A DNA stretch of 64,000 bases from Geosiphon pyriformis uo1 (taxonomy: Eukaryota; Fungi; Glomeromycota), in contig JAAOMT010000627.1 of NCBI GenBank assembly GCA_016748015.1, forward strand, positions 434,001-498,000. Direction: 5' to 3'. Below the pieces are notes generated by a model. The model saw only the letters and a list, made by a program, of their open reading frames with translations. It did not search any database and was not told where the DNA came from. This document shows positions 14,824-41,654 of this stretch, piece by piece. The position numbers and the translations under genes were made by a program. Each line of letters starts with the position of its first letter. Positions within the stretch are counted from its first letter, which is position 1.

Positions 14824-15636
14824 TATTATGGAATGGTTTTCTTGGTATATTTTAATTGTTGATTTTCCATTTTAATTGCAATCAGTCTTTTGTAAGTTCT
14901 TCTATTATGTGTTGAATATTAATAATAATGTACTGAAGGTTTTTTTTTGATGTTGTAATGTAAGTCTTTTCTCTAGTTCTAGTTGTCTTTGTATGTTGTG
15001 TACTTCTTCCCAGAGACTAATCTGAAATCTACTTGTTGTCTGGAGTTTTCTCTGAGGCTATCCCTGCAATTGTTTAATGTGTTTCTCTAATCTAAAAACA
15101 CGAAATGTTAATGGTTTTTTTGCGATTTCCCTAAGTATATAATAAGCTTTTTTCAATTTAATTAGTAGTCACATGAATAATCTTGATCAGGGATTATTTT
15201 TCCAAAGAGTTTAAAGATGGAATGATAGTTTTATTCACTAAAGAGAGTATGTGAATTCTATTGTTAATCTTGTAATTGTGATGTTTATTCAATTTATTAT
15301 TTTTATTAATTCTTTTTGAATAAGATTTTATTTAGATATTTGTTGCTTTTAGTTAAAGCTTGTTCTTTTTCATTATTAAAAACTATTGTATATATATATA
15401 ATTATTGTTTTACAAAATAATGTCTTGTAATACTCTATTTCCGTTATTTCTAAATAGTGCTTGTTGCTATTGTAAAATAGTGCTTGCTGCTATTGTACAA
15501 TAGTGCTTGATGCTATTGTAAAATAGTGCTTGCTATTATTTGTAAATCATTTTTTTTTATAAATTGTTGCTATGCTATTTCATAATTGGCTAATTTATAT
15601 TATTTATAACTCCTATTAAATTCTTGAACTGTAACA
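14824..15636 (-). repeat. 3' LTR of element B
   Basis: 813 bp, repeat of 23625-24414. Four copies of a 23-bp unit AATAGTGCTTGnTGCTATTGTAn. Confidence 0.93.
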
Positions 15637-15649
15637 TTATTCTCTCCTT

Positions 15650-16363
15650 TCAAGATTGAGTTCTGTCAAAATTGAAGTTAATTTTTTTATTGATTTCTAT
15701 ATTATTGTAATAATCTAATACTGTATTATTAATTTGTTGTTGTAAATTTTGAAATTGTAAATTGGTTAATCATTCAATACTATTAATTGTTATAAGATTT
15801 ATAGTTGGATTCAATAGTACTTTGTGACAGTTTTCGAAAGCCTTAAAAATTCTGTAAACAGCTTTTATATGAAGTATATTGTTGGTTTTTCCAATAAAAC
15901 TTTCCAATTGTTGTATTATTGTTTTGCTAAATACTTTGACTGAATCTTTTGAGTATAATGTTTATATGTTTAATTGTTTTCCCAATTGGTAATAACAATA
16001 ATTAATGGGAAATTTTTTCTTTAGCTGTTCAAATATACTTGGTGTTAATTCTACTATGTTTATTTCTTCTGTTATCAATGTATTATTCAATGCTATTCCT
16101 AAATTTTTAATGGTTTTGTCAATAAAGCTGTTACTGTTTTTGGCAATAGTAGTATATGATGCAAAACTAGATTTCTCATTTATTATAGAATTTGGTATCA
16201 TTTTTCTTTTATATGATATCTCAGAACTATTGATTGTAATTTCCAAATCTGAATTTGATTGTTGTAAGCTTTAACATAGTTGTTGGGTTAACTTACTAAT
16301 GTTTTCTGGAATATATGTCATTGTTTTAATTCCTGACTGCTTTTTGGGCTCTTTTGCATGCAT
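15650..16363 (-). pseudogene. ORF3 (unknown accessory protein) of element B
   Basis: 238 codons from ATG 16363 to TGA 15650, with a few premature stops. Motifs FPINYCYYQL, IIQQLESFIGK and FDRTQS* are homologous to ORF3 of A and C. Confidence 0.75.
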
Positions 16364-16406
16364 TTTTATGCTTTTTTAACTGTTTCTTGGTGTAATTTAA
16401 GATTAA

Positions 16407-19400
16407 TTATCTTTTTATATAATGTTTAATTAAAACTACTGGTTCTAAATTTTGCGAATCTGATCTGGTAATACTAGTAGTATTTGTGTTCCAATTCTAA
16501 GTGTTTGTGTTGTTATTACTAGTTTGTTGTAATATAATTTCAGCTGGTTGCCATGTGCTGTTTTTCTTAAAATTTTCTCATTTAGTCTTAACTTGTATGC
16601 TACATTGCCAAGTATTTTATGAATATAGAATAATCTATCCCACTTATGGTCAAACTTTTCACTCCATTGCTTTTCTGCTTTGGTACAATGCAACAATACT
16701 TTGTCTTCTATTTTATAGCTAATTATATTATCTAGTAACTGGTTATCATGTCTTACTTTTTGTTGTGCTTGTGACTGTTCAATATTTTGAGCTGCTTTTC
16801 TTCTTTTGTTCTCCAAAATTTTCATTAACTTATATGTTCTTCTAAGTATTGTTTCGTGAAATGTTGTTTCTGTAATAATTTCATTTGAATAAGTTGGAAT
16901 AGTAAGTTCAATTGGTAATATGGCCTTTCTTCTATAAACCAATTCAAATGGTATAAATTGTATAGTATTTTGTTTTAATGTCCTATATGCTAATAAAACT
17001 GCTAGTATGAACAAATTCTATTCTTTTTCATGTTCACTGCTGATTTTGGCTAATGTTTCACATAGTATATAGTTAAACCATTCAACTAATCCATTTGTTT
17101 GGGAATGGTATAGTGATAATAGTGGTCGTTTAATTCCAAATTTTTGGCTGGGTTCATTTAGTGTACTGTTTACAAAATGTGTCCCTTGGTCTGACAACAA
17201 TTCTTGTGGATATTCATGGCAGCAAATTAAATCTTCATGTACAAAGTGGGCTACAGATATAGCATTAACTGTTTGAATGGCTTTAGCTTCTGGCCATTTA
17301 GTAAGGTAATTTACTGCTACTGCAATATAATGATTGTTTCTTGCTGTTATTGATAATGGTCCAACTAAATCAATTCCAATTCTATCAAATGGTTGTCCAA
17401 CTTTTATGGATTTTAGTAGTTCTGTTGTTTTTGTTCCTTCTCTTTATTGGCATGGGTCACAATTTCTTATGTATTAGATAATATCTGAGTGCATTTTTGG
17501 CCAATAATAACAACTAGTTGTATGTTGAATATTTGCTTCTTTTCCAAAGTGACCTGAATGGATATTCGAATGCATGTTAAATAAGATAGTTTCTTTTTCA
17601 TTTTCAGTTATAACTCTCAATGAATTATTTGGATTTTGTTGATTCCAGTAATAAAGTATGTGGTTTTGAATAAAATAATGTTTTAATAATTTCTGGAACT
17701 TAATTAGTTCTTTTATCGATGTATCTTTATCTAGCTGTAGTGTTCTCAAGTATTGGCTAAGATTTTTGTGAAGATAATTGTCCATTGTTTATGAATTGGT
17801 TGTTGTTTGATGGTTTTTATGTGTGTTTCATTTGCGACAAACAGTCAGCATTGGCATTTTTGGTATCTTCTTTGTATTTAATGATATAATTGTATGGTGC
17901 TAATATTTGTAACCATCTGGTGTATTTTCCTTTTAGCACTTTTTTGTTATTTAATCAAACCAAATCTCTATGATCTGTGGTAATATTAAAGAGTTTGTAC
18001 CATAAGTATGTGTCAAAGTGAACACAACTCCAGACTACTGTTAAGCATTCAAGTTCATGTGCTGTGTAGTTTTGCTCTGCCATACTGAGACTTCTGCTGG
18101 CATAAGCAATTACATGTTCTCTTTCATTATCATCTTTTTGTGACAGAATGGCTCCAAGTCCTGTTCCAGAAGCATCTGTAGCCAAAATGAATTTTTTGTT
18201 GAAATCCAGATAGATTATTATAGGTGATTCAATGAGCTTTTGCCTAAGATACTCAAAAGCTTTTTGCTGTGTTTCAGTCCATTCAAATTTCACATTTTTG
18301 AATAGTAAATAATTAAGAAATTTGGCGATGTTTGAAAAGTTTTCTACAAAGTGGTGGTAGTAAGATGCGAGTTCTAAAAAGCTTCTAACTTCTGAAATGT
18401 TTCAAGGTACTAGAAAATTTTTTACTTTGTCTATTTTTGATAGATCTGGTTTTATTCCATCTTTTCCAACTACGTGTCCTAGAAATGCTAGCTCATTTTT
18501 CCTAAAGAAACATTTTTTTAAATTTAATTTAAGTCTAGCATGTCTCAATCTCTCAAAAACTTGTTGTAAATGTTGGAGATGATCCATGAATTTTGGCGAG
18601 AAAACATTTGTATTGTCCAAGTAGACAACAACAGATTGTCACAGAATTCCAGAGTAAATTACGTCCATTAGTCTTTGGAATGTTACAGGAGCATTTGTCA
18701 ATCCAAATGGCATTACATTGAACTCATAATTGTCATTTTGTGTTGTGAATGCTGTTTTATGCCTGTCTTTTGGGTCTATTTCTACTTGTCAGTATCCACT
18801 GGTCAAGTCAAGTGTAAAAAACCATTTTGCTCCTCCAAAAACATCAAAGATTTTGTCAATTAATAGTATTGGGTATAAATCTTTAGTTGTTTTGCTGTTT
18901 AGTTTGCAATAGTTGATGCAAAATCTAATTTTTCCGTTTTTTTTCCTTACTAAAACAACTGGTAAGGACCATGGGCTCATTGATGGTTGAATTATTTCTT
19001 TTTTCAACATGTTTTGGACTTCTTCTCTGATAAAATTATGCTCTATTGGTGGAACATGGTAAGCACGTTGTTTTTCAGATCTGGCATCTCCAGTGGAAAT
19101 TTGGTGTTAAACCAAATTGGTTCTTCTAAATTTGCCATTTCATGAAAATATATCAGAGTATTTTAAAATTAATGCTTTTAATTGTCACTGTTGGTCTGGA
19201 TCCATTGTTCCAATGTTTAATTTGGCCAATTCTTCTGGCATAAATTGATAGCATTCCAACAGTTGTTGCCAATTTATTGAAGTGAGTTCACAGTAAAGGG
19301 TGATTTCTGGGAAATTTAGAATTTTTTGTAGTGTTGATGCATTTTCTAGTTCTGTTCCAAGGTATTCCATGATAATGTTTTCTGGAATGTATATGAGCTC

Positions 19401-22400
19401 TTCTGTGGTATTCATAATAAGAATTTTTATCCATTGTGTTTTGTCAGCTGGAATAAAAAGGTTAGTAAGTCCTATGGAAAACTGTTGGCAAGTTTTTGGG
19501 TGGGGCTCGAATATTAAATTTATATCTTTTATTGTCCTTTTTATTTTAATTTCTGATTTTCCATAAGGTGTAAGCATAATTGACTACTTAGTTTTAATTA
19601 ATTCACCTTTTTCTTCTATTGTTTTAGCAAAATTTGCTTCAATTCCTTTTCCTGTTGATTCGAAACCAAAAGTTCCTCTTGTTGTTTGTATCAATTCCTC
19701 ACAATTTTCCACTGGCACAAATTTCCCAATTTTTACCAATAGTAGAAAAATTGCTTGTGTAATCTTCTCCTTAAATTCAATGATATAAGATTTTTCTGAA
19801 TTGTTTTGTAGCAAAACCATCAAATTTTCAGTGTAGCTGGAGTTAATTACTCCTTCTTGAATGCTTATTCCTTTTTTCACGAGACTTAATTGCGACACTA
19901 TTTGGACCATTATTCCTGGCAGAATTTCAACCACTATTTTTAGGTTGATTTTAGTAATACTTCTGGGTGGCAATGTCATGGATTGGTTTTCCAGATACTG
20001 TAAATCAAATTTGGCGTCAGTTGGATGGGCTCTTTCAGGTACTATTCCTAAGTGCCCATTGTCATAGTACTGGATGCTGATCTCCTGATCTAGATCAGTA
20101 TAGGCTAAAATATTTTCTGACTCAGAACTGTCAGATAAGTTTTGTTGATTTATTGATTGATTTTGGTACTGCTGATTCTTAATTTCCATTTTCTATTCTA
20201 AGTCTTTTTCATATTAACACTCTTCATATTGCTGACTTTGGCACAGAATAAGACAGTCTTCACAAAAGTAAGTGTTAATCTGAGTGAGATACTGTTCTTG
20301 CTCTTGATAAGTGGGGCATAGCTGTTGGTAGTTTTCCTGGAATTTGTCCACTGGGTCGAACATGTTGTAGTTGACAACTTCATTAGCTATTTTGGCTGAC
20401 ACTTTTCAACATCGTATTTTTTCGGTGGTTTCTCCTCTTACTTTGGCTTGTGTGGTGTTGTATAACTCATTCTCATCATGTGGGTAGTGCTGCAGTCTTC
20501 TTAATGCTCTATTAAACACTGCTTCGAATAGCATTCCTCCTCTTATCCAATCACAGATGAGGATCGTGTATTGGCAAGTTGTGTTACATGTTCCTCTTCT
20601 GCCTGGTATGTTATTCCAGTCACATCCTCTTGGTAACAGTTCTTCACAAGCAAGGCACAGTTCTTTGTTTCATTTTCCATGTCTTTCTGGGTAATCGTAT
20701 TTTTCTTTTTTATAACAGTTACAATAATAGTGGATGGGATTTCTTGGGTCTTTGTCTGGTGTACTGCATGCAATTATAGACAAGAGTTTTTTCTTGCAAA
20801 CTGAGCATTCTAGCTTTGGTTTGTGTTGCTGGTGGTTTTTTCATAGACTTACTTGGTTCTATTCGGATCTTTCTTTGCTGGTCTACTTTGGTACGGCTGG
20901 TAGTTCTGTTCTTTGGTCATCAGCCCAAAAGAGCTAATAGGTTTCGATGGCTGGTAGTGCTGGATTTTTCTCAAATTCAAAAGTAGATCTTTGGTTGGTG
21001 CTGGGTTTTTGAAAGTGGCCACAGGTGGCTGGAATTCTGGCCTGGTGACCATTATAATTGATTAGAAGCTCTTAGGTAGTCTAGTTTAGGGTGGCGTTGG
21101 CTTTTGTTAGCCAGTCATTCCTTACTAACACTTGATATTGTGTAGCGTTCATTACTAATACTTTTGTAGGTATTATTATACCATTAATTTCAAAAAAAAA
21201 TGTGTCAATTTCACCATGAGGCAGCTTGGTACTTCCATCAGCTGTTATAATTTGGAACATCACTGTGTGATCAACTTTGAAACCCAGTTGGTTTATTAGT
21301 TGAAGCATTACAATACTTCTAACGGATCTACTGTCTAAGATGAGTTTAATTGGCATATTGTTTACTTTTGCTTCCATGTACATAGCAGTGATTGGGCATT
21401 CCTTATCCAATGCTGCTCCACTAAACATAACCTTTTTTTCCTCTAATTCAAAAAGAAAAATAGCTGTGAGACTGCTATCTTCTGTGACAACAACTGGTGG
21501 TATTGTTTAGATCAAGTTCTGGCTATTGGTGGTATTTTCAGTTCCAGGTATGTTACTATTAATAATTCTGAGATTTAAATTTTCTGATATATTAAAGTAA
21601 GTTGGCTGGAAATTTGGGTAGTTTAGATAGTTTGTGTTTGTTTGCTGATTAAGTCCTACATGATTAGGATTTCTAGTAATAATTGCATTTTGACCTAATA
21701 CTGACTGGCTTCAAAACTCTAAATACCAGTTTGAATTTGGAATTGCTGGTCATTGCTGGTAAGTTTTTTGATTTTGGTACATAGTGAAGTATTGACATGG
21801 TATTGGTGTGTATTGATTTCTGAGCATTTGGGGGGGGTGCGTAATAATTATTTTCATGTGCCTTTTGTATTATTCACATTCGACATTGGCTGATTAAATG
21901 TCCTACATGTTTGCAAAAATGGCAGGCACATGTTTCTGTTCTGAAGTCCTAATGCAACAAGCAATTATTTTGGCTGCTGCTGAATTCCTGGTTGCATCTT
22001 TGAAGTGTTTGGTATGTGTTATTTTTTCCTGGGTCTGAGATGAGGTAACTTTCTATTTTTTTAGAGAGTTTCTCCCCTAATTGTGTTACTCTCTTTTCTA
22101 ATGTTTTTGTCTTGTTTTCCTCTATTACTATGTTAACTATTTGACTATAATTAGCTTCTTTCTCAGCTAATTCAAGGGCTTTGGCAAGCATAACGGCTTC
22201 TGACAATAAATCAGGGTGGGCAGGGTGTACTCTTCCTAAAATACTGCTTTTTAATCCTCTAATAAATTGATTTAAAACCTGAGGATTGATATAGTATCCT
22301 TGTTCAATTGCTTCAATCTGATGGCAAATTTGATTGAATCGAGCAAGATATTAGATAACAGTTTTACCAGTACCTTGCTTGATAGTATTGAATTCATTTT

Positions 22401-23560
22401 GTAGTTGGATTACAGTGTTTGGGTCGCTAAAATACTCCAGGAGTGCATTTTTAAATTCGGCAAAGCTCATGAGTTTTGTTTCCAGGCTTTGATACCATGA
22501 GTCAGCTGTGTCTTTCAGAAAAAAAGGTAATGTTTGAATTGCTCTTTGGTTATTTCAGTTATTTGCCTGGATGGCTTTTTGTGCTTTTTTAAGCCATGTG
22601 TGCACGTTTGTTTTTTCTTCCTCTCCTGAGAAATCTGTTAGTCTTGTGATGTATGATGTGGCCATTTTGTCGCCATTTTCTACTAGTGAGCTTATTGGTC
22701 TAAGAAGGGGGGATGATATTTCCTTGAGCATTTCTAAAGATGGCTTTTCTTATATTTGGTTCTTCCTCTTAATCATGAGTTTCTTGGTTTCTGGATTGGC
22801 TGCTTGTTCCAGTAACCAGTCTTGTAATTGTTTTTTTGCTGGTCTCTTTTTCGGATTCCGATTCAGACTTCTCTTCATGGTTTTCAAACTCTGTTCTGAA
22901 TTTTGGCTGAAAAAGAGGGTTTTAAAATAGTGATGAATATCATCCTGTAATTGGTATGTCTCCCCAGTTATATTGTTTAATTTTATCAGTATAACTAGGA
23001 GTCCTTGGCATTTGTGGAGTTGATATTAATGATGATGCAGCTTCTAATGAAATTTGTATCTTATTTTCTGGTGAAAAATGGTATGATTTATTTTTTGGTA
23101 AATAAATATGTTGTTTCTTTATTGATTAAGTGACAGTTTTCTTTGGTGTTTGAACAGGTGTTCCTAGTTTTTGCTGGTTACTTTTCTGATTAGTTTCTAA
23201 ATTTTCTTTGGTTTTGTTGACACATTCCCTAGTGTTTCCTGTGAATATTAGAAAATTTTTGTTGGTGTATTGCTCAATTTTTTGATGGATTTTAACAATA
23301 GTTGTGGCTATTACTGCTACTTCCTTTGTAGTGTATTGTGATAATTCTCTATACAATCCAAGTTTTGCGTTATGTGGTTCTTCTTTCTTTCCTATGTGGT
23401 AATTTATTCTGGCATTGATATAATAAGTGGGAGCAAATTCTGCTGGACAACACCCTTCTGGTAATCTAAGATCACTTTGATTTTGTGTGTAAATAGCATG
23501 GCAGAATTCAAAAACAGTAAGAGTAGGGGTTTTTGTTACCACTTTTGTTTCTTTCTTTTT
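16407..23560 (-). pseudogene. gag-pol pseudogene of B
   Basis: N-terminal domain (23126-23542), capsid from ATG 22665, protease LILDSRS (ORF 21081..21428), Cys-rich domain (~20820-20210), dUTPase (ORF 19584..20189), RT (19010-18400), RNase H ATDASG (17955..18293), integrase LSDQGTHF (17018..17200). Confidence 0.92.
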
Positions 23561-23624
23561 AGCAATAAATTATTGCTAATTATTATTTTTTTTTTGATTT
23601 TTTTTTTTCATAGGGTTCATCAAA

Positions 23625-24414
23625 TGTTACAGGATAGTTTTCTTGGTATATTTTAATTGTTGATCTCCCGTTTTAATTGCAATCAGTCTCTCATAAGTTC
23701 TTTTATTATGTGTTGGATATTAATGATAATGTACTGAAGGTTTTCTTTTGATGTTGTGATGTAAGTTTTTTCTCTAGTTTTAGTTGTCTTTGTATGTTGT
23801 GTACTTCTTCCCAGAGGCTAATCTGAAATCTACTTGCTGTCTGGGGTTTTCTTTGAGGCTATCCCTGCAATTGTATGATGTGTTTTTTTAATCTAGAAAC
23901 ACGAAATGTTAATGGTCTTTTCACAATTTCCCTAAGTATATAATAAGCTTTTTTCAATTTAATTAGTAATTACGTAAATAATCTTAATCAGAGATTATTT
24001 TTCCAAAGAGTTTAAAGATGGAATAATAGTTTCATTTGCTAAAGAGAGTATGTGAATTCTATTGTTAATCTTGTAATTGTAATGTTTATTCAATTTATTA
24101 TTTTTATTAATTCTTTTTAAATAAGATTTTATTTAGATATTTATTGCTTTTAGTTGAAGCTTGTTCTTTTTTATTATTAAAAATTATTGTATATATATAT
24201 AATTATTGTTTTACAAAATAATGTCTTGTAATATTCTATTTCTGTTATTTTTAAATAATGCTTGCTACTATTGTACAATAGTGCTTGATGCTATTGTAAA
24301 ATAGTGCTTGCTGTTATTTGTAAATCATTTCTTTTTATAAATTGTTGCTGTGCTATTTCATGATTGGCTAATTTATATTATTTATAATTCCTATTAAATT
24401 CTTGAACTGTAACA
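23625..24414 (-). repeat. 5' LTR of element B
   Basis: 790 bp, TGTTAC...GTAACA. Three copies of the 23-bp unit. Confidence 0.93.
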
Positions 24415-27400
24415 ACACAAAAGCTTCAAATCAGCTAGAACAGTCAACACACACATGTACTTGCCATGTGTGGCCACTTCAAGCCAATTACTATGCCAAC
24501 AGCATCTCTTATCGAGTTCGAGAAAGAAGAAAAGAAACCTACTTGGGAAGCCTATCAAGTGTTATGGGCTAAAGCAGATCACAATAAGTTACCACCAATA
24601 CTCTCTTGGGATGATAACGGAAAAGAGAAACAAAAGGAAGGACTTACCTAGAATGCCAACCAAGACTGAGAAACTAACAATAACTCAAACAAATTACCAA
24701 CCTGAGAATGGGAAGAAACCAATAAAGAAAAAGAGAAAAAAAAGGAAGAAAATATAACCAAAGAAACTACTGCCACAAAAAAAATAACTAGGGGCTGGGA
24801 AAAAGAATACTTACAAGAACTGATCAAAGAGCCACCATGTATACTTCTCAAATGCAAGGACTGTGGGAAGAAACTTTCTTTCATGAGAGCTTGGATCACA
24901 CCAAATGAAAATTACTGGATCCAAACCCACTATTATTACAAGTCTTGCCACTGCAAATACTATGGCTACCCAAAAAGACAAGACAAGTGAGACAACGAAC
25001 TATGTCTTGCTTGTGGCGAACAACTATTGAATGAAGGAATATGGAACAACATTCCTGAATGAGGAGGAACATATGACACTTTGTGCCAATACACAATCTT
25101 CATCAGCAATTGGGTGAGCCATGATATGCCAATAACTGCTGCCTAGCACTGTGTAATATCTCACTTGGATGGTTACCCACACGACGAAGACGAGATTTGG
25201 CAAATGGCAAACACCAAAGTAGAAGGTGCCACACCTAGCAAAATATTAGAAATCAAGAACAACTCTCTGAAGACAGTCAACATTGTTTTGATTCCCAACC
25301 CAGATGCTTTTCTGAATCTGGAAGCAGACCCAGAAGAATTCCATGAGCACTACCAAAATTTGGCACCAACAAGAGAAAAACAAGAGCAGTGTTTAGCCCA
25401 AATCAACACTTGACTATGTGACTATTGTTTAATTCTCTGTGACTTTCAATATTGTAATGAGTGTGACCTTATTTACAATCCACCCATCCGCATAATCTAC
25501 ACAATCCCAGAAGAAAATGAACCAATAAGCAACTGCGCATTGGAATTGGAATCAGTTTTTAATCTCAATTCAAACTCTGACAGCAACAATGACAAAAACA
25601 CCAGTTCTAGCTTCACTCAAAACGGCAACAAAAATAACAATGATTTGGACCCCAATTCAAATTCCGAAACATATATCACTCTCCCTGACCTTACCAAGGA
25701 GCAAGAACTGAAATGGTTCAGCAATAATAATGAAGGTATTATGTCTGAATGTGTATATAATACTGATGCAAGATTTGATCTGAGATATCCAGAGAAAAAT
25801 TCCATCAAATTAGAACTTTACTCACACACTTGTATTGATCTGAAAATAGCATTGGAAATTTTAACAACAACAATAGTGCAATTAGCATCCAGAAATAGTT
25901 TAGCAAAAAAGAGAATCAATATTAGAAGAGAAATAATTAATGCAAAATACATAGAAAATATTATTGTTATGCTACAAAATGACTCAGAAAAAACATATAC
26001 CATAGAGCCAAATGAAAAGATAACACAGGCAATATTTTTATCTCTGGTGAAAATAATTTAGTTAGTTTCAGTAGGAAATAAGGAAGAATTAGGGATTACT
26101 GTTAGAGAGATACAAGGATTCAGATCAATAGGTAGAATAGATATACTAATTAATATGACAGAGGAAAAAATTGTTGACAAAAAAGAAATTATCTCAATCC
26201 GTCAATCAATCTCCATTCCACCATATAACTAGTATATATTAGCTATAAAAAGAGAAATAAAGAATCAAGCTCAGTTGTTTGAAGCAGAAGCTGCCATTTG
26301 TGAATCAGGAGAAATTGGACTCACCAATCTCTACATATCAGCCAACAGCCCCAAGAATATCAAAATTTCCATCTACAATACAATAGGACATGTTATTGAA
26401 ATACTAAAAGAAACCATCATTGGATATTTAACCACTGAAGTTGAGGACCAACCACCAAACCATATTCTAGATTTTCCACAGCTTTGTAGATATGTGGACA
26501 TCACATTACAAACCATTTATGGACGAAACAAATGTTATCTACTTGAACCAGAACAATTGGAACAGATAAACATGGGGAATCTAGACCCACTCCAACAGAT
26601 ACAACTAAAGACATTACTTAGCAACTTCAATGACATCTTTGCCAGTGAAAACGAATTTGGCAGAACCAACATCATCCAGCATCAGATCAAAACTGGAGAT
26701 GCAATGCCAATTAAACAAAGAGCATACAGAGTACCACCAGCTAGCCATAAGATCATTCATCAAAAAATTAATTGAATGCTTGACAACAGGCTAATTCAGC
26801 CATTAATGAGCCCATAGTCATCACCAGTGGTATTAGTCCAGAAGAAAAATGGAAAAATCCACTTTTGTGTGGATTACTGGAAACTGAATAGAGTAACCAA
26901 AGGAGATAGCTATCCAACGCCCAAAATCCAAGAGCTGTTTGACACTTTTGAAGGAAATAAATGGTTCTTAATACTAAATTTGGATAGTAGTTACTGGCAA
27001 GTAGCCATGGATCTAGCTGACAAAGAGAAAACAGCATTTACCACAAGAGAAAGAAATTTTGAATTTGAAGTCATGCCATTTGGATTGATGAATGCACCAG
27101 CCATATTCCAATGGCTAATGGAAATTGTATACACTGGACTACTATGGAAGTCAGTAGTTGTATACTTGAATAATACCAATGTATTCTCAAAAACATTTGA
27201 TGATCATCTGTATCATCTTCAACAAATGTTTGAAAGGTTAAGAAGAACCAAACTAAAATTAAATGCAACCAAATGTTTCTTTAGAAAAACTGAACTCAAG
27301 TTTTTGGGACATGTGGTGAGCAAAGATGGAATCAAAACAGATTCAGATAAGATTGCATTAATAAAGAACTTTCCAGTACCAGCAAACTTGCCAGAACTGA

Positions 27401-29378
27401 GGGCATTTTTGGGATTTGCAGACTATTATCGCCGTTTTATTAAGGACTTTTCTAAACTAGCCCAGCCACTTTACCATTTACACACCAAGAATGTGAAGTA
27501 TAAATGGACTGAAATTCAACAAGAAGCGACACATTGAGAAAAAAGCTTATTCAAGCTCCAGTATTGATGTATCCAGACCATAGCAAACCATTCATCATCA
27601 CTATGGATGCATCAGATCAAGCATTGGGAGCAGTACTATCACAGAAAAAACCAGATGGAAGAAAACATCCAGTAGCTTACACCAGTAGAAGCTTAAGTTC
27701 AGCCAAAAAGAACTATAGAACACCAGCACTAAAACATTTAGCAATCTATTGGGCAATCATAAAATGGAGAGAATACTTGAGCCAAAAGTTTGAAATATAT
27801 ATGGATCACAAAGGATTGACTTCAATCCAGAAACAAGAATTTGCAGACAATTGTCATGCCAGATAGAAAATAGAACTTTCACTATTTAATTATACAATAC
27901 ATTATAAAAAAGAAAAAGACAATGGAAATGCTGACAAATTGTCGTGAATAAGACAAATCTAAAAACATTTCAACCCAAAAATATAACAAAACATAAATAC
28001 ACAAAAATATTAACAACTTCAACATTATATAAATATGCAATCATTTAAAGAGAAATTATCTCAAAAAGAACAAAACAACATAAAACAACAATCAAAATAT
28101 TTTAAAATATACTTTACTGAAAGAACAAAAGAAATTCAGATCAACCAATCAGAGTAATCACAGAACCAGAGAAAGAGACAATATTATTCAACATACACTC
28201 AGACCCAACAGCAGGACATTTTTATAAAGAAGCAACCATGGAAAGAACCAGAAAAAGATACTATTGGCCATCAATGTATTCAGACACCATTCAATATATT
28301 CAAAATTGTAATGCTTGTCAGAGAAGAGGAGGAACAAAACCCAGTAAACCATTAAGACCAATTAAAGTAGGACAATTATTCAATTGCATTGGAATTGACT
28401 TAGTCAGACCATTAACAATCACCAGCAGAGGCAACAGATATATTACAGTAGCTATGAATTATCTCACTAAATGGCCAAAAGCAAAAGCCATTCAAAGAAC
28501 AGATGCAGAATTTGTTGCCAAATTTGTTCATCAAAATTTGATCTGTTAATATGAATGTCCAAAAAAACTACTATTAGATCAAAAAACTCACTTTGTGAAC
28601 AGAACACTGGCAGAATTAAGTCAAAGATTTGGAGTTAAAAGACCATTGTTATCACCATACCATCTACAAACCAATAAACTAGTTGAAAAATTTAACAAAA
28701 CATTGTGTAAAGCAATCACCAAAATCAGTCAAGAAAACCAAAATGAATGAGATTTGTTCATACCATTAGTATTATTTGCTTATCAGACAATAAAACAAGA
28801 CACTACACAAGCAACACTATTTGAATTAGTATATGGTAGAACAGCAATACTACCAGTGGAAATAGAAGTCAGCACATACCCAACTGAACCAATAACAAAA
28901 GAGAATTTCAAAAACACATTATTGAGAAAAACATATGACTTAATGGAAACATTAGAAGACAAATGATGAAAAGCAGCTGATAACATACAAAAGTCACAAG
29001 AGAAACAAAAAAAATGACATGATAATCAACTACCAAATAAACCAGTTGAATTCAAGATTGGAGACAAAGTATTTTTATATCATACCAAAGCAGAAAAACA
29101 ATGGAGTAGAAAATTTGACCCCAAATGGGATGGACCATTTCACATAGAAGAAATTCTTGAGAATGGAGCTTATAAATTAAGATGAGACAACAAAATTTTA
29201 GCCAAAGCAGCACATGGTAATTGACTAAAACTATATTACCAGATAGCATCATCATTTACCAATAACATTCTACAACTAGAAATACAAAGAATACTAGTTC
29301 AACCAGATGAGATTCCATAAGATCTAGAACCAATCATAATTATTGAACCAAACATGTCAAATTGAACAACCAAAAGAA

Positions 29379-29385
29379 TATATAA
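29379..29385 (+). promoter_or_regulatory. Candidate internal TATA box upstream of ORF3 in A
   Basis: TATATAA just after the pol stop, ~37 nt before ATG 29422. Equivalent sites at 59839-59845 (C) and 16415-16421 (B, minus strand). Confidence 0.55.
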
Positions 29386-29421
29386 GGGCACAATATACAT
29401 GACAAAAGCAACCAAGATAAA

Positions 29422-30057
29422 ATGGAAATACCAGATCATATTCACATCATAGCTCAACAATTATTTCAGGCCTTAAGTCAACAACTCCTGAACATAGAAA
29501 TTATTGTTAACAACCAAACAATTTGCTATTGAAACACCAAAAGAAAAACAAAGAATACACCATATCAGCAATTACCAAAGAATAATAAAAACTGGTCAGA
29601 TAACATAATAGAAAAAGTAAAGAACACTTTTGGGAAAATACCTATTATGGCACCAACAGAAGAACTTACAAAAAAGAATTAGAAGCAATGGACAAAACAA
29701 CTTCTAATATCATACTACTACTACCAGTTAGGTCAGAAGTTAAATATTTAGGAGTTGTATATTAACAAATTCAAGAAAATATTTAACCAAAACATAATAC
29801 AGCAAATTGAAGAATTTATTGGAAAGAAAACAAACTCAACACTACATATGAAAGCAATTTACCAACTGCACAACATATTTCAGAACTATCCAGAATTACT
29901 GTTACACTCTAACATGGAAACCATAACTATTAACCAATGGGGAAAAATAAACAATGTACAAGTAGAAGACATGAAAAATAAAGTCGAACAAACAATACTA
30001 GAAAAAAAAGTATTAGAGCTAATTCAAAATAAAGATTTCAATGGAGCTCAATATTAA
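29422..30057 (+). pseudogene. ORF3 (unknown accessory protein) of element A
   Basis: 212 codons, MEIPDHIHIIAQQLF...IQQIEEFIGK...DFNGAQY*. Stop codon overlaps the PPT. Confidence 0.75.
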
Positions 30058-30072
30058 AAAAGAAGAAAATAA

Positions 30073-30887
30073 TGTTACTCATAGAAAGAAAACAGATATA
30101 GAGAAATAGTAGACCAATAAGCAAATAGCATATAGCATATAAGCACATTGCTTAGCAAGGTGGAGCAATATCAGAAAACATGGCACATTGCTTAGCAATA
30201 TGGAGCAATGTTAGAAAATTAGTGTGCATTGCTCAAAAAATTATAGCACATTGCTTGGGAATGTGAGTGATTTCATAGAACATCAATTATGTATATATAG
30301 TAGTAGCATTAAAAGTAAAAAGAGCAGAATCTTTTAGTTAGAAATCTTCTATCCACAAATATTAAATAAATAAATCATTCACCATCCAAAACCACTCTTT
30401 ACTATCAACACTTTATGTTGATAGTAATTGATACTTAACCACACTAGAACAATAGCTCTTGATCATGACTATTGATAGGATACTAACTTGCAATTGCTTT
30501 TGTTTATTTCTTTATTTTTTTTTATTTTTTTTTGTTATTTTTTTTGTTTTACTAATTGATTAAAGAGTTAAGTGCTAAGTTATTAATATCAAAAATAGTC
30601 TGGTAAAAGACTCCAAAGGAAGGGTATCAAAATTGAGAATTTAAGGATAGCTTACCAGAAGGGCATCTCTGCCAAGATTACCAGCCACCACACTGAAAAA
30701 AAAATTTGACGGAATTGCAATTCTGGAAGGCTATGGGAAAGACAACAATTGAATCTCTGTTTATTATACAAAAGACTCCACAACAAAACCTTCAGATCAT
30801 CATCATCATTACTAATGACAATAACTCTTGAACACCAAGTTATGGGTTTGTTATTTGACTTGAGACCCCAAATAATCATCTGTAACA
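30073..30887 (+). repeat. 3' LTR of element A
   Basis: TGTTAC...GTAACA, preceded by the PPT and followed by TSD GCAT. Confidence 0.95.
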
Positions 30888-33800
30888 GCATTAAAAACAC
30901 CTTGTATTTTTTTGTTTAATTTACTATAATCTTATCAACTTTGGGCTTTATTTTCTTTGGTTTTAGAATCAACTCTTTTCTAATTACTAAATGGTTTAAA
31001 ACTATCTTGTAAAAAAGTTGATTTAGAATGCTTCTAATTATGCTTCCTTTGTTAGAACTAAAATTTTCTATTTGTCTCTTAATTGCACTTTTAATGACTG
31101 TATTTTTAACAACTTTTAATTCATAATACTTGAACAATTTATATTTTTTTCTAATTAATGACAAATATTTAATAATATTTACCAAATTTTTATTATTCCA
31201 AACCATAATTACAATTTTGAAAGTCTTTTTATTATTAATTATCAACTATTTTGTAAGAAGACAATCAAACTTAAATTTGTTGTCTGTACTTAATTCCTTT
31301 ATAATTTTAGCAACCAGTAATTCAAGCCTAAAAAATCTTGATAATTGTTTATTTTTTAAACACTTGAATTTATTGAACTAATGTTTAGAAAAAGTAGTAT
31401 CTGTTGAACTTATTATTACTTTTTTCAAAATATCTTACATATTATCTAATTTATCAAGAGCTTTTGTATTTGCAAACTTATTTACTATCAACAATAACTT
31501 TAATAAAATACATTCCTTGAGCCAAATCTATTTGGCACTATTCATATTTTTAACATTAAATTTCTAGTGATTTTTATTTGTTTGCTTGTAAATACTATTC
31601 AAATATGCACTCAATAAACTCTTTAGACTAACTGAAACTACAATTACTTTATGATTTGTGTTAAAAAATTTAGAAATAGTGTTAATTTTACATATTGTGA
31701 TCATTGACAACAAATTTTCATTAACAAAAACATAATCAATAATTTTTTTGGCTTTTCTGGAATTATTTCAAGAAAAAACTTTTACCAAAGAATGTCTTTT
31801 AAGTGAATTAACCAGACTTATATCTAAACATTTCTTTAAGCTAACATTTTTTTTAGAATCATTTTTATTGAAATTGCCACCCAAAATCACAAAAAAGTTA
31901 GAGTTAACAGCTTTGAAAATAACAGAATTAATATTAAAAACTTAATTAAATTACATATTAGCAAATACACCAATATATAAACCCAAAATTATAATCAAAA
32001 GTTTGTCTTTAAACAAAAAACAGATTAAAATTAAATGACCCAAAATCTCATCCACTTTTAAAACATACTAAACCAAAAAATTGTTTATAAATACAGTCAT
32101 ATTTACTTCAAGAAAACTTATATTCAGACCAAAAGTAAAAATTCTAATTCAGTCAAACTTATTTATAATTCATAGTTTAATATTAGATCTCAATTTTGTT
32201 TTTGTAATAATTGAAACCATATTTTCCGATTTTATATGCCAATAAACAATGTTTTTCTGCTTGGCAAAGACATTGATACTCTAAACATTGTACATAGCAA
32301 ATTTTCAAACCAAATTACTTATTAAGATAAAAAAAATACCAGAAAACTTAAGCCAGTACACAACTGATTTAACTTTGTCAAAACTAAATTAACAGAAACT
32401 TCAAGAGCCACTATTTTAGATTTTAATTCATCTATCTTAGTGGTCAGAATTTTTGACCTATTTAAACCCAAATTTGAAACCATATTATTTGTAATTAAAA
32501 GAGAAAGAATAAATAACACAGATGAGTTATCCAAAATTATATTCAAATCCAATTTTGAATTTGAAGAAACAAATTTTACAGAAGACAAAAATTAAGAAAC
32601 AAATATTAAGAGTATTAAATTCACAATATTTAATTTTTGTACAATACTTAATATTTGATTGGCCAAAAGCTTTAGGGAATATTTCAAGAAATTTAAGTAA
32701 ACATTAATAAATAAATTATTTTGGGTAACTACAAGACTTGTTTTCATATATAATATATCAAAAAAAAGAATTTAGAGCCAGTACCAAAGTAAGTATTAGC
32801 AGAAAAAAAAAATGAGTAAAACTATCTGTGCTCAAGATTTGTTATTAAAGACAGCAGAACAAGAAATAAAAACACTTTTTTTGGTATATAATTTAGCCAA
32901 TTGAAGACAATTCTTTTCAGAAGCAATATTTTTATATATTTTTTTAGAAAACAAAACACAAAAATCTGATGTATCATATTCTAAAGCTAAGTGTCTAAAA
33001 TACCCACACTTTTTACAATAAATCAGATCTATTTTAGTCTACAAAAGCTTAACACTATCTAAAATAGACTCTATTTAAAAAGCTAATTTTAATTTTTTTT
33101 CTAATTTAAAGCCAATTACTACACAGTAACTCCTATTGCCAGTATTAAATAAATAATTTATAATGCAAGTTTTCTCACCAGTTTCTTTTAATAGAATACC
33201 AAGATATGAGCAGTTGTTTTTACAAACAACATAAACAAAAGTGCCTTAAACTGATTTTTTAACATTCAGACTTCATGATCTCTCACAGTTTTTGTCATAT
33301 GTACTGAGTTTTTTTGATAAGGAATGATCATTTTGTTACTATTTGATTAATCTAACTTGATTTAGCAAATTTTACTATAGTTTTCTGTCATAGTCTAATT
33401 AATTGTAATTAGATTAATACTATTTGACCAAACTCAAAAAAAGCTGTAATAATCATTTTTTTTAGTGTATTTATGAAAAATTTCTTAATAATTATAGCTT
33501 GATCTGAACAAATTTTTTGTCTTTTAATATTGTTGTTTACAATAATTCTCTTATTTTTAACCAATAATATGGCTTTTTTCATACTTTTTTTTAATGTAAA
33601 CATCAATCAAATAATTTTTTTAAATTTTGAGGAAGTAGTAATCATCTTAAAATCATTGATTGATGAAAAAAGTTTTCTGATGAATTGAGTTTTTACCATT
33701 ACTGATTTGTTTTCTACTGTTAAAAAATTAATGTCCAAAACAAAAGACTTCTTAACAAATATTTTTACATAAGTTTTGGTTATTTTAAGATCAATTTATT

Positions 33801-35270: not shown

Positions 35271-36048
35271 AGTATATTTAATTATAAAAATAAGTTTTTA
35301 TTTTATTTTTATTAATTTAATTACTAGTTTTCTTAAGAATTTTAGCCAGTTTTAATATATATAAAATTTATATTTTAAATATTTATAATATAAAAAATTA
35401 AAGTATAAAAAATAATAAAATAAATTTTATGAAAAAATAAATATTTAATCATATTTTGTAATAAAAAATTGCTTAAATAAAATAAAAGCAATTTATTTAT
35501 TTGGTTTGTTAAATATAATCCTAATAAAAATCTAAAAACCAATTATATATATAAGCTATATTTAATATAATATATATATGTTAAATATAATTAAACTATA
35601 CTTTGTTATAGCAAACCCAAAACATAAATATTGAGTTAATAAAAAAACAATTAAAACTATAGAAAAAATAAATGTAGCTTTTTTTTACTTTTTGATTCTA
35701 ATAAAAATAATTAATTAAAGGTAAAACATAATCTACCTTTTCTATTTATGGCAGACGATTAAATATAATTGATCGCTGAGACATAGAAATATGTACCAAT
35801 ATCTTTGCGTCTCGGAGTTATTTATTTTCTAATATCTGATATCACATCCAACTTTTGCTTTTCTCTCTTTCACTCGTATTGCCCGTTAACTTCAAAAAAC
35901 TTTCCTTCCTTCACGAACCTTTTAAACTACCATTAACTTAACTTTGCCACACTTTAAACCTTTCATTTTTCAGCCTAAAGAGATACCCGTGCTTCATACC
36001 TTTGGCATCTAAAGACCTTTCTGATCACTTTTGATCCAGACAAAGGGC

Positions 36049-36809
36049 ATGAGTCATAACAGTGAACAAGTTGATGGGGTTACTGATACTAATAATACTA
36101 ACTTAGATACTTTCTCCTCTGACATTGCAACTTCAAATACTGAAAGTTCGGCAAGCGATCAGGAAAACACATTCCGTGGAGATCTGATTGTGTCGTTGCC
36201 CACGCCCTACACACACTCAGAGCAAGACTCAGCAGTAGTTATGGGAGGAGACAAACCAGATGAGGCTTTTACGGAGGTTAGGCTTACCTTGTTGCTGGTT
36301 TCAGGCAAACGACACACCTTTAAGTGTAAGCCTACCGACATAGTAGGAACAGTAAAGAAGCGCGTATTTGATAACTGGCCTAAAGGTAACTTTTAATTGT
36401 AAAAGGCTTCCATTTTTTCGTCAACAACTAAGCCGATATAATGCCCGGAATTCTTATGTTCAACGATAGAGTGGGCTGATGAAACTCCTGCAGCAGTCTC
36501 AAATCTTAAAATAGTTCATCTTGGGCGATTTTTGGAAGACGGATCGACGCTTGAATGTAAGCTTGAAAGTTATTAGCAGAATTATAAAACAAATAATAAC
36601 AATAACATCTTTTAAAGCAAATAAAATAGAGGCAGGACAAAATATAATTGCGCATTTGATAATTAAAAATGTATTATCACCGGATGCAGATGGTATGAAT
36701 TTTGGAGAATATTTTTCATACATTAAATTTTTTAATAAAAACCTTGAATTCGCTTACAGATCCAAAATCCACTGACAATGCTCCAAAGTGTCAGTGCACT
36801 ATACTGTGA
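36049..36809 (+). CDS. UBL3: UBL3/MUB-like membrane-anchored ubiquitin-fold protein
   Basis: Four exons (36049-36385, 36470-36556, 36618-36692, 36760-36809) with GT-AG introns in phase. Ubiquitin fold LLLVSGKRH...VKKRVFDNWPKEW...LKIVHLGRFLED. C-terminal CQCTIL (CAAX box). Confidence 0.88.
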
Positions 36810-37382: not shown

Positions 37383-38678
37383 TCAATCACCGCTTGCCTG
37401 AATCTCGGCTTTCACGACTAGTCTATTTTTCGATTTTATAAATTTGGCCTTTGCTGTTGAGATATCAACAGTAAATGGCAAACTTTTATCCAGCTGATAA
37501 TATGAAGGAGCATAGAATATAACTCGAGACGATTCTATTTCTAATGTTGAGCTTGAAATTGATTGCTAACAATTTAAAATTAAAAAAATTCGTTAGAACA
37601 AGGATTATCATAAGCTATTTTATTAATGTGTCATCAATCGAATTTACCATAGCTGGAATTTCAATGAAAATGAATGCGAGGGTTTTCCCGTTGATTTTTC
37701 GCTCTAAGAAGGAAACTGCTGGCTCAGGAGAGGAAGTCCCCATTTCCTTAATTTCAGTAATCATGGGTGATGGGCGATGAGATTCCGAAGATTTTGCTTT
37801 AACAGATTGAGTGGAAACCTCCTTAATAAAAGAAGGCTTCTTTTTCTCAAAATGAAGTGTAAAAATTTCCAGTTGGCCTTTGCATCGAGATTTGGGGAAT
37901 GAAATATCTAATTTTCGTTTCAAAGTTTATAACTTAAGTTAGAGGATTAAAAATTTAACCCGAACCAAGAAAAATTAAATACATACTACGATCAAGCTGA
38001 AGGCCATGCTTTTCCTCAATATGTTCGATTGCGAGTTCAGTAACAAAAATCTTAAAGTCCGAATCCACTGTGGTTTTTTTGTATGGCTTCGTGTTCAACG
38101 CAGCATCACAAACGAGATAATCGTTTCCGCCTTTCATATATACTTAAACAGTCAGTCTGAAGGATTGTTTGTAAATATAGGCTTAGGAATACTCGCCTCA
38201 ACAAACCTCTATCTTTATCTTTCTTAAGACTACCAATCATGAAAGGTATTTGATATGTTACACCCTGTTCTGCATTCAAAGCAGATATGATTTCTTTCTC
38301 AGTTGCTGCTGGAGGTTCAGGAACCTTATCCGAATAGCAAACATTGATGAGGAATTTTAAACCGGCTGGAAATTGGTCCGTTTCCGCCTTTGAAACGCTA
38401 GTTTTCACTACATATCCTGGTTTAGGCTCGAATTTTAGGACTCCCTTCTCCTGCTCAGTAGTGTTTTTTTTCAGCTGTACTCCTAATGATTCTGGATTTT
38501 GAGAAATTTGTGCAGAAAGCTCTTCCCAAAGACGAGCTTCTTCTGACAGTTTGGTTTCAGATTCTTTCAAAGAGTGAGCTTTGAGATCAAATAACGAAGG
38601 TAAAGACGTTGATTCAGTGTTATCAAAATCTAAATCTAGTTTCGACGTTTTAATATTCATAGTTCTTGTGAAGGTCAT
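37383..38678 (-). CDS. PIH1: PIH1/Nop17 domain protein (R2TP-type co-chaperone) with C-terminal CS-like domain
   Basis: Exons 38678-38207, 38130-37987, 37907-37648, 37565-37383 with GT-AG introns in phase. Motifs EPKPGYVVKT, KFLINVC, YQIP, VCD, ELAIEHIE. The start ATG could be a few codons downstream. Confidence 0.85.
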
Positions 38679-38989
38679 AATGGGTACCGTTTGATTGGGT
38701 ATTGTTTACCCTAGATACCCTCATTCTACTTCAAAATGTTAGTTTACAGAATTTTAAGACAAATTTGTTATATATTCATATTGTTTATAATTAGAAAAGT
38801 TTATTATGTGGTTTGTTTTCTAATAATTACATATCTATTTTGTAAACATCTTATTTATTTTATGATTTTTATATTTATTTTAGTTTTTTTAATTACTATA
38901 TTTGTTTTAAATATTCAGAATTTTTGAATTATTTATTAATAATTTAAGTTTATAATTTTTAAAATCATGTTTTTTTTCATTATAATTTT

Positions 38990-40790
38990 TAATCAAAACC
39001 AAATTTCTGAAAAAGCTGTATTTCAAAAAAAAAGTTTGTTGTTAAAGAAATAGTTTTTCTTATTTTTTTTTCCTTTTTTTTTGGTTATTTTATTTAACAC
39101 ACTTTTTTTCATTGTAATAAAACTAGTAAACTCTTTTACTGATGGTTTTGGTTCTGGTTTGGCTAGTTTAAAGACTTATTTAGGCACTAAAAAGAAATAT
39201 ATAGAGAATATTTACTCTTATGATATATTTTATAAAAAGCCAAAAAAATTTGATGCTAGTTGTAATATAATTAATTCATCTGCTGGTTTTTGAGTTTGGA
39301 AAATATTGAGAGCTCTAATATGAAACTTATAATATCTTAAAAAAGCAAAATAGATAATAAAGCAATTAATATTAACAATTTGTTAAACATAGAGAATATA
39401 AAAAATATACTTATTAAAAATACTAATTATACAGATTTAGATATTTTAATAATTAATAAAAATATGAACAATATTATACTTAAAAAGACTTGTACTTAAA
39501 TATATATATTGAATTATCTGTTAAAAGTTTTTTTATTTGATATTTAAGTAATAATAATAATATTTTAATGTTTTTATTACTTAAATTTATTGGCTTTAAG
39601 CAATTGTTGTTGGTTAAATTATATGTTTTAAATAAATAAAATTTTAATTTAATAAAATTTTTCATGTTAAACATTGAATTATTTGTTGTATTTGACAAAA
39701 CTTTTAGCAATAAGCTAATAATTATAAAAAAAATTTTTTATCATATTAATGATTTTAAAAAAACATTAACTCTTTTAAAATTCTCAAAAATCATTAAATT
39801 ATTTTTTATATCTGAATTTAGTTTTAAAAAGATTAAAAAAATGGTTATTAATAAGAAAATTATAATAAATAATAATAATAAAAAGATAAATATTCATACA
39901 GATTAAGAAATAATTATCAAAAAAAATTTTATCAATTTTTCTAAATTGGCTATAATATTGGTTTTTTTTAAATTTAATAAAATTATATTAATTAAGATAC
40001 AGCTTATTGATCTTTAATAAAAAACTCTAATTGAATTTAAATCTGCTAAAATTACCAATTTAATTACAATTAAATAATTAGTTTTTATAAGAAAAAATTT
40101 TGTGTATGTAGTTAAAACTGTTAATAATAAACAAATATGGATCTTTAAAAATTATTATTGAATCTTATTATACATATTGTTAGTTAATATAAGTGTTTAT
40201 AATTTCTCTAAGCTGTTAATATTTTATGATAAAAAAATTTGTTTTATTAATTGTAATTCAAGTACATATAAGCAGAACAAATGTATTGTTATTTGTTTTG
40301 CTAATAAAACATTAAAAAAGACTGTTATTAATTTTATTTTAGTTTTTATATATGTAAACTTGCACTAAATTAGTCTGTTCTTGGCTGTTTATGCTTAATG
40401 TAAACAATTTAATCATATTTTAAATATGTGTTTATCTGATAAAAATTCAGGTAATTGTAATAAAAAATTAGTTATCTTCTAAAATCAAATATATTTGGTT
40501 AACATATATAAAAAGAAACAGACACCAATTGCTTATTTAGTTTTTTTTGGTAGCAAAACATAAGTAGAAGTTGTTAGTAGTCTTTTATTTTTTTTTTGTA
40601 TAATAGTTTTCTGAAAATTGGTTTTTTTTGGAAATAAAGTTTTTTTTGTTAATTATAATAGAAGTATATAATAAGTTTACTATTTTTAAGTACAGTCTTA
40701 TTAATTTCAAAAAGTAATTTAGTAAGTTGACTAAAAATTTGGATATATTTGAACTAATAATTTTTTAATCAAGCTCTAAATATTAGTTAT
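38990..40790 (+). mobile_element. Decayed LINE ORF1 fragment
   Basis: Translated pieces (ORFs 39081, 39664, 40177) resemble ORF1 of the LINE copies at 32322-34194 and 42120-43976. Ends at an LTR. Confidence 0.6.
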
Positions 40791-41654
40791 TGTTATAATT
40801 TAAAAATTTAGCAAAAGAATTATAAAATAATATAAATTATTCAATCATAATATAGCACAATAATAATTTTAGAAAGATAATGATTAACATAATAGCAAGT
40901 ACCATCTTGCAATAATAGCAAGCACTAGTTTACAATAGTGACCAACATCAACTGATCATAATGGTAAACACCAGATTGAAATACCAAAAAAAAAGTATTA
41001 TAATGTGTTTTTTCATAAAACTACAAACATATATATATATATAATAGCTTTAATATTAAGAAAAACAACAAAATCATAAAACAAATCATAAAAACAAGTT
41101 TATTTAACAGTTTTATTTTAATTATCTTCTAATTTTTATTTTAAAAATAAATATTCACAAAAATAAATATTCAAAAACAAATAAAAAAAAAATTAAAAAC
41201 TAAATAATCACAATTTAAAGTATTAAAAAACTTATTTGTATTATTTATTGAATAAAACTATTATTTATTAACTGAATTTCTTGAAAAAATAATCCTTAAT
41301 TAAGATTATTTATGTTGTTACTAATTGATAAAAGCTTTATTGTAAAAATTAAGAAAAGTACTAAAGGCCATTAACATTCCATGTTTCTAGATTAAAAAAA
41401 CACATTAAACAATTGTAAGAATAGTTTTAGAGAAGACTTCAAACAGTAGATAAATTTCAGTTTAATCTTTGAAAAGAAGTACATAAATATACACAACAAT
41501 TAGGAATTGAAAAATAACTTATATTATAATATTAAAGAGAAAGTCTTTAGTATAACAGTAATATTATCACACAAATAGAATTAAGGAACTCATAAAAGAC
41601 TAATTGCAATTAAAACAAAATATTGGCAATTAAATATACCAAAAAAATTATTTC
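40791..41654 (+). mobile_element. Isolated LTR related to element B LTRs (3' terminus clipped)
   Basis: Begins TGTTATAATTT and aligns along its length to the sense strand of B's LTR. Lacks the last few bp and has no TSD pair. Confidence 0.8.

Follow-up and report, generated by a model that had tools for sequence, protein, structure and literature searches.

The 64-kb window (the whole stretch of Geosiphon pyriformis DNA that we analyzed) contains three Ty3/Gypsy retrotransposons, which we call A, B, and C; B is nested within A (Table 1). All three have LTRs with TG...CA ends, a 4-bp target duplication, a primer binding site (easily recognized in A and C but decayed in B), and a polypurine tract (PPT), as expected for Ty3/Gypsy elements. 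The LTR pairs of the three elements differ at 82/805, 85/853, and 53/781 sites, and 80, 83, and 52 of these differences are transitions. A, B, and C are therefore old, mutation-scarred copies. There were no matches to Rfam within the 64-kb window.

Pfam identified Retrotrans_gag, dUTPase, and RVT_1 in C, and RT_RNaseH, Integrase_H2C2, and rve in L001, the contig that encodes the ORF3-related protein P0055. We used tblastn to place the gag-pol domains supported by C or L001 onto A, B, and C; RT-RNase H precedes the integrase. The integrase is broken as often as ORF3, with 3–9 stops per about 400 codons. The dUTPase lies in pol between the protease and RT (25414-26061 in A, 55793-56700 in C, and 19584-20192 on the minus strand in B). 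In A and C, a cysteine-rich segment before the dUTPase looks like a zinc finger and has no match in Pfam. The gag frame seems to begin within U5 and to cross the primer binding site (about 11965-12070 in A and 51895-52000 in C). The LTR leaders of A and C contain a block of two hairpins (11540-11720 and 30397-30580 in A; 51480-51660 and 60887-61070 in C), and one hairpin loop holds the palindrome TGATCA, a possible dimerization site.

The window also contains a solo LTR (40788-41655) with 67% identity to B's LTR and a similar 23-bp repeat in U3 (40889-40937), as well as another fragment related to B's LTR (31848-32334). A gag-like frame starts after a gap of Ns (62009-62983) and occupies 63016-64000; it probably belongs to a fourth element. 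Between the elements are exons of host genes (36025-36396, 37615-38705, and 45857-47242), which may encode ubiquitin-like, PIH1-type, and BRO1-type proteins.

Table 1. Features of the three elements in the window (L001 positions refer to that contig).
Feature	Position	Strand	Remarks
Element A	11215-30887	+	Ty3/Gypsy, decayed; target duplication GCAT
5' LTR of A	11215-12039	+	U3 array as in the 3' LTR; perfect 9-bp inverted pair
RNase H stop, spacer, and integrase start of A	27954-28000
Integrase of A	27993-29365	+	Decayed, start approximate; an ORF of its own, past the RNase H stop (27960-27962)
TATATAA of A	29379-29385	+	14 nt past the integrase stop, 43 nt upstream of the ORF3 ATG; may be an internal promoter
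ORF3 of A	29422-30057	+	Pseudogene; 211 codons with 3 internal stops; P0004 is its nearest relative without stops
Polypurine tract of A	30056-30069	+	Shares bases with the ORF3 stop; a conserved DNA motif lies before it
3' LTR of A	30073-30887	+	TG...CA ends; 4-bp target duplication GCAT
U3 array of A	30143-30255	+	ACATTGCT half-sites, direct and inverted, 40-bp period; candidate ORF3 target
Element B	14824-24414	-	Ty3/Gypsy, decayed, nested in A; target duplication ACAC
5' LTR of B	23625-24414	-	Target duplication ACAC
RNase H stop, spacer, and integrase start of B	17830-17780	-
TATATAA of B	16415-16421	-	58 nt before the first ORF3 codon
ORF3 of B	15650-16363	-	Pseudogene; 237 codons, 3 stops; in relatives, the frame starts at the second ATG (16321)
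3' LTR of B	14824-15636	-	Carries the U3 array
U3 array of B	15445-15547	-	CTATTGTACAATAG palindrome, 23-bp period
Element C	51116-61375	+	Ty3/Gypsy, decayed; target duplication ACAT
5' LTR of C	51116-51968	+
RNase H stop, spacer, and integrase start of C	58370-58460
TATATAA of C	59839-59845	+	41 nt before the first ORF3 codon; homologous to A's site
ORF3 of C	59880-60509	+	Pseudogene; 209 codons, 4 stops; start codon is ATA
3' LTR of C	60523-61375	+	Target duplication ACAT; carries the U3 array
U3 array of C	60601-60765	+	GAATTCC/GATTCCAG units, 40-bp period
RNase H stop, spacer, and integrase start of L001	766-805

ORF3 as a gene family

The initial annotation of this DNA had reported a further frame behind pol in all three elements. 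We recovered these ORF3 frames at the same coordinates, between the integrase and the PPT, and none of them is interrupted by a frameshift. All three copies are dead pseudogenes. The other sense frames of the same DNA contain 8–24 stops and the antisense frames contain 11–21, versus 3–4 in ORF3. At the protein level, A's ORF3 is 44% identical to C's and 34% identical to B's (tblastn E values of 2e-39 and 4e-23), and it is 76% identical over its full length to the 211-amino-acid protein P0004.

Each ORF3 was also said to have a TATATAA upstream. The three boxes are present, and they amount to two independent observations: the boxes of A and C are homologous, sit at the end of a block that the two elements inherited from a recent common ancestor, and are one observation. 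The probability of finding TATATAA in shuffled sequence is 0.009 for the spacer of A or C and 0.09 for that of B. The spacer of L001 has TATAAAT instead, which is unremarkable given its composition (P = 0.75 for TATAWAW). It is plausible, judging from these boxes, that ORF3 is transcribed separately from the internal TATA. Another TATATAA, near the start of the integrase, was rejected as a second promoter because it is coding (H-Y-I-N).

As the initial annotation had noted, in A, B, and C the ORF3 stop codon lies across the beginning of the purine run that precedes the LTR. The ending F(D/N)GAQY or FDRTQS, which had been listed as a shared protein motif, turned out to reflect a constraint on the DNA beside the PPT, and we rejected it as a protein motif because this DNA is read in different frames across subfamilies. 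In subfamilies E, M1, and M2 (the subfamilies are described below), another frame reads it as ELSLEEE or ELNLEEK, and ORF3 runs on into the LTR. In L001, the unused frame still spells FAGAQS followed by a stop. Among 276 collected proteins, 74 and 97 end in one way or the other.

Our first protein search with ORF3 gave six matches, and all six are gene models from Geosiphon pyriformis (the best is 76% identical over its full length). A search of 1.84 billion representative sequences gave 54 matches; we looked up 10 of these, and 8 were Geosiphon models and 2 were metagenomic. In two profile searches, Geosiphon models accounted for 118 of the best 120 of 180 matches and for 117 of the best 120 of 218. 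ORF3 may resemble common hypothetical proteins from Rhizophagus; the best 120 of 180 and the best 120 of 218 matches are all from Geosiphon or metagenomic. Scans of loci found no relatives of ORF3 in viral contigs or prokaryotic genomes, and in metagenomic contigs they found no match for the relative P0034 and one for P0055. A profile HMM of the family found no relative inside the LTRs of the window. No Pfam family reached its cut-off in the sets of 3 and 15 ORF3 proteins that we tested, no PHROG matched ORF3 with E below 0.001, and no PDB sequence matched at E = 10. For annotators, the outcome is that over 260 "hypothetical protein" gene models in Geosiphon are the ORF3 transposon gene.

We divided 273 ORF3 proteins without X residues into eight subfamilies: C (97 members), E1 (77), E2 (40), D (37), A (14), B (4), M1 (2), and M2 (2). 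Representatives of the subfamilies are 18–42% identical to each other, except for E1 and E2, which are 67% identical. Stop-free relatives at 22–27% identity are found in elements of other organisms. In 17 of the 276 gene models, the tail of the integrase is fused to ORF3; because these fusions include D and E types, those subfamilies occupy the same slot behind the integrase.

L001 contains, in order, RT-RNase H, an integrase that is 53–55% identical to the integrases of A, B, and C, a 316-nt spacer, an intact ORF3 of 230 codons, a PPT, and an LTR. Its integrase is otherwise intact and has a single TGA (at 1564-1566), so this could be a newly inactivated copy or an assembly error.

The initial annotation had proposed purifying selection on ORF3, and this held up. 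The pN/pS ratio between A and C is 0.47 (0.38–0.59), and it is below 1 in all six pairs; these values come from protein-guided alignments with saturated synonymous sites, and the shifted-frame controls gave 0.64–1.36. Because of the saturation, the protein-guided alignments, and these controls, the conservation across the family is stronger evidence than pN/pS: the frame is kept, there are eight subfamilies, and the copy in L001 is intact. ORF3 is a real accessory gene that has been kept under selection at the protein level, and it fits the definition of a sense additional ORF of LTR retrotransposons.

The ORF3 protein and the U3 repeats

We obtained AlphaFold2 models for two ORF3 proteins (mean pLDDT of 77.5 and 81.7). 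Both are predicted to have an N-terminal helix and a beta-hairpin, a disordered linker near residues 42–54, and a confident helical core. Within the predicted core, a G-x-T-N turn leads into a helix that bears R/K. The columns that are conserved across subfamilies include Y-x-Y-x3-G-x2-L, the G-x-T-N that leads into an A-x2-R-L-Y-x2-F helix, and N/Q-x2-G-K/R-x-T. Structure searches found no clear match with either Foldseek (best E of 0.2 in PDB and 0.03 in BFVD) or VIA (best Z of 4.1 with rmsd 5.2 over 95 aligned residues, and Z of 5.0 with rmsd 6.3 over 52). We set aside helix-turn-helix-type hits such as SigF (1l0o_C; Z = 3.8, rmsd 2.4, 56 aligned) because they tied with unrelated proteins, and likewise ParB (6s6h_B; Z = 3.4, rmsd 3.0, 59 aligned). 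These searches barely covered the N-terminal module, and a weak match does not show that a fold is new. A homodimer prediction, run without an alignment, scored 0.00 and counts neither for nor against a dimer.

By hydropathy alone, we found no hydrophobic segment: the maximum Kyte-Doolittle value for a 19-residue window is 0.27–1.29 in 11/11 proteins. ORF3 is therefore not Env-like, which agrees with the initial annotation.

At residues 46–56, 6 of the 8 subfamily representatives have R/K/H-x2-5-PY (P = 0.013–0.038 each, by shuffling). This matches the consensus for the PY-NLS, a nuclear localization signal, as it is outlined in PMC8140498. The motif sits in the low-confidence linker of both models (pLDDT under 50), and the linker is basic in all eight representatives (+4 to +6). 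Subfamily C, which is the most numerous (97/273), lacks the PY motif, and both of the E2 representatives that we tested have SY. The 77 E-type models have PY at this site in 45 cases, LY in 18, SY in 10, and FY in 1, and 3 have none of these. C-to-T decay would turn PY into LY or SY. The 25 residues at the C terminus are mildly acidic in 7/8 representatives (net charge of 0 to -7), and in the E and M types the PPT spells part of this acidic tail. Intact proteins of M1 and M2 are acidic (pI of 5.9 and 5.4). The overall pI is uninformative, because G-to-A decay inflates lysine while the intact M1 and M2 are acidic.

Each U3 contains a repeat that stands just upstream of the LTR TATA (in A, this TATA is at about 30292, just 3' of the array). 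The repeated motif differs among A, B, C, and L001, where it is TTGCCCT; in A, B, and C it is palindromic. The 8-mers of the motifs of A and C, and two of the three of B, are found only in their own element, aside from single scattered matches. In L001, TTGCCCT occurs three times in U3 and twice at 51–72 nt upstream of the spacer TATA, and not at all in 2.1 kb of pol (0/2000 dinucleotide shuffles). In A and B, the stretch ahead of the internal TATA has no copy of the motif from the element's U3. Upstream of C's TATA there is a TTCCA...TGGAA pair, which we rejected as a cognate site because it also occurs in A and in the coding sequence of RT. Since A and B have no upstream copy and C's candidate is unspecific, the argument from a shared site comes from L001 only.

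The rate of transversions between A and C is 0.005–0.025 in the integrase and 0.18–0.25 from the internal TATA to the LTR TATA. The left edge of this diverged block is A's TATATAA; the block spans ORF3, the PPT, and U3, and the rate drops after the LTR TATA. At four-fold degenerate sites, we counted transversions at 5/90 positions in the integrase and at 9/19 in ORF3 (P = 2.7e-5, Fisher's exact test). The other 5 of the 6 pairs do not show a contrast between integrase and ORF3, because both genes are saturated. The simplest reading of the block would be a recombinational swap of a cassette that runs from TATA to TATA. The joint divergence of ORF3 and U3 may be trivial: because ORF3, the PPT, and U3 are adjacent, one template switch would move them all, whatever the role of ORF3.

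A and C also differ strongly in another block, between the protease and the zinc-finger segment (24612-25300 in A versus 54928-55700 in C; transversions of 0.16–0.24). A gag-pol linker region is likewise diverged, so the mosaic structure of the elements extends beyond the ORF3+U3 block.

Possible functions of ORF3

We tentatively favor, at a little under an even chance, the idea that ORF3 is an accessory protein with its own TATA-driven transcript that acts in the nucleus, binds the U3 repeats of its own element, and activates that element. Beyond the existence of the gene, each step of this scheme is our inference: ORF3 would have its own subgenomic RNA, be imported into the nucleus, bind DNA, and activate the element, which might work as follows. 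The internal TATA would drive transcription at a low basal level and yield a short RNA that ends in the 3' LTR. The ORF3 protein would enter the nucleus by means of its PY motif and would bind the U3 array of its lineage and, where a site is present, its own promoter. The output of genomic RNA would then rise, either by direct activation, as with Tas from foamy viruses, or by lifting silencing by methylation, as with VANC from VANDAL transposons; these modes are not separable here. ORF3 itself is a conserved accessory gene, without a membrane segment, of fungal Ty3/Gypsy elements that carry a dUTPase; as an activator it would resemble Tas or VANC in how it works, which does not imply relatedness.

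The observations that argue for an activator are the PY-NLS-like motif, the lineage-specific U3 arrays, the ORF3+U3 block, the shared site in L001, and the mildly acidic tail. Against it, subfamily C does not have the PY motif, and the basic pI of the Geosiphon copies may reflect G-to-A decay. Also, repeats in U3 are common and may be sites for host transcription factors. So, the initial annotation's suggestion of a transactivator or an anti-silencing factor now has circumstantial support and is still a conjecture.

ORF3 could act on other parts of the element's life cycle. It would be rather unlikely, in our judgment, for ORF3 to leave U3 alone and to be a cofactor in the particle or in integration, or to be directed at the host (suppressing defense, or aiding spread between nuclei that share a cytoplasm). 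ORF3 is soluble and helical, always adjoins the integrase, and diverges fast (18–42% identity), and a nuclear signal would fit a role before integration as well. Fast divergence is typical of proteins in conflict with the host. Tight pairing with the integrase is hard to reconcile with A and C, whose integrases are 74% identical while their ORF3 proteins are 44% identical with saturated silent sites. A nuclear RNA-binding factor that exports unspliced genomic RNA, like Rev or CERV, seems unlikely. The leaders of A and C do have intron-like signals (GTAATT, a T-rich tract, TACTAAC/T, and then AAG), and their two-hairpin block is conserved between A and C (z of -2.9 to -4.0 in 4/4 copies) and might be a response element; a PY-NLS-like motif is compatible with a shuttling protein; and CERV from the Cer1 element is a precedent (PMC10309623). 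However, splicing of the leader is inferred from motifs only, and the hairpin block was kept between A and C while their ORF3s became highly diverged. The region that diverged along with ORF3 is U3, which is absent from the 5' end of the RNA. And CERV, as characterized in PMC10309623, has 517 amino acids and is made from a spliced mRNA that overlaps gag.

We consider it quite improbable that ORF3 is a translational transactivator like the caulimovirus TAV, which would let ribosomes reinitiate on the separately encoded integrase. Having the integrase as a separate gene is unusual for Ty3/Gypsy elements. A TAA closes the RNase H frame in all four elements (A, B, C, and L001); a short A/C-rich spacer comes next, and then an integrase ORF that has a start codon of its own (ATG in elements B and L001, and ATA in elements A and C). 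TAV, too, comes last among the ORFs; a short spacer ahead of it contains a TATA box, and it has its own subgenomic RNA (PMC5902531). On the other hand, the Pfam scans showed no likeness of ORF3 to TAV, and ribosomes may be able to reinitiate or enter internally at the A/C-rich spacer unaided. A TAV-like role would also explain neither the PY motif nor the ORF3+U3 block nor the fact that U3 arrays are lineage-specific. Finally, ORF3 occupies the slot of env and every copy in the window is broken, so it might be an Env-like protein or a non-functional remnant that is open by chance. This is very improbable, given a hydropathy maximum of 1.29, 1–3 cysteines, and a length of about 230 amino acids, and given that the integrase is broken equally often and that stop-free relatives exist elsewhere at 22–27% identity.

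If ORF3 is indeed an activator, then a wider claim would be that fungal Gypsy elements encode their own sequence-specific activators, of an undescribed family, which are swapped together with the U3 array as a TATA-to-TATA cassette. We view this as possible and somewhat doubtful. Each lineage would then have a private pair of activator and enhancer, as well as an integrase in a separate gene, and a regulatory circuit in the style of complex retroviruses would have evolved independently in a fungal retrotransposon. LTR elements make up 41.2% of the G. pyriformis genome, according to the figure given in PMC11952901, and their expansion might in part be due to an activator or anti-silencer that they encode themselves. 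The function of ORF3 is directly testable, because the family comes with candidate targets, natural intact copies, and natural swaps of activator and enhancer.

Comparison with known systems

ORF3 is an undescribed accessory gene family of fungal Gypsy elements, and its copies in the window are dead. Our literature search, which covered few subscription papers, found no description of the gene; an earlier mention is possible. Extra genes are known from LTR retrotransposons, and most do not have a known function. PMC2864245 mentions a fungal "add. ORF" without a known function, as well as elements that bear dUTPase. Sense additional ORFs between pol and the 3' LTR (aORF-3S) are known as well, and as they are defined in PMC7264820, they are like ORF3 in where they lie and which way they point, in being present in most copies of a family, and in lacking a known function. 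The sense examples described there are env-like and often have membrane segments or splicing, whereas ORF3 is soluble and has a TATA box. The example with its own promoter and a nuclear protein, gene23 of maize Grande, is antisense, unlike ORF3 (PMC7264820).

CERV (PMC10309623) and TAV, or P6 (PMC5902531), are like ORF3 in being accessory regulators of Gypsy-related elements, and TAV shares the last position and a TATA of its own. As portrayed in those two papers, both act post-transcriptionally and differ from ORF3 in size and in expression (CERV is spliced from gag), and we saw no homology to either. VANC, too, is an accessory protein of a transposon, and PMC5735166 presents its targets as tandem repeats, which vary from one related element to another. 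VANDALs are DNA transposons of plants, and we saw no homology between VANC and ORF3.

In contrast to foamy viruses, the elements with ORF3 are fungal Gypsy elements without env and without a spliced product like Bet. No match to the Tas/Bel1 family reached the Pfam cut-off in the sets of 3 and 15 proteins; Tas is poorly conserved, so homology could have been missed. In the account of PMC3798896, Tas resembles ORF3 in its size (209–308 amino acids), its 3' position, and its rapid divergence, and its internal TATA promoter has a candidate counterpart in the TATA boxes upstream of ORF3. The response elements of Tas are lineage-specific and lie in both U3 and the internal promoter (PMC3798896); the candidate sites of L001 have such a layout, whereas A and B have no upstream copy and the candidate in C is unspecific.
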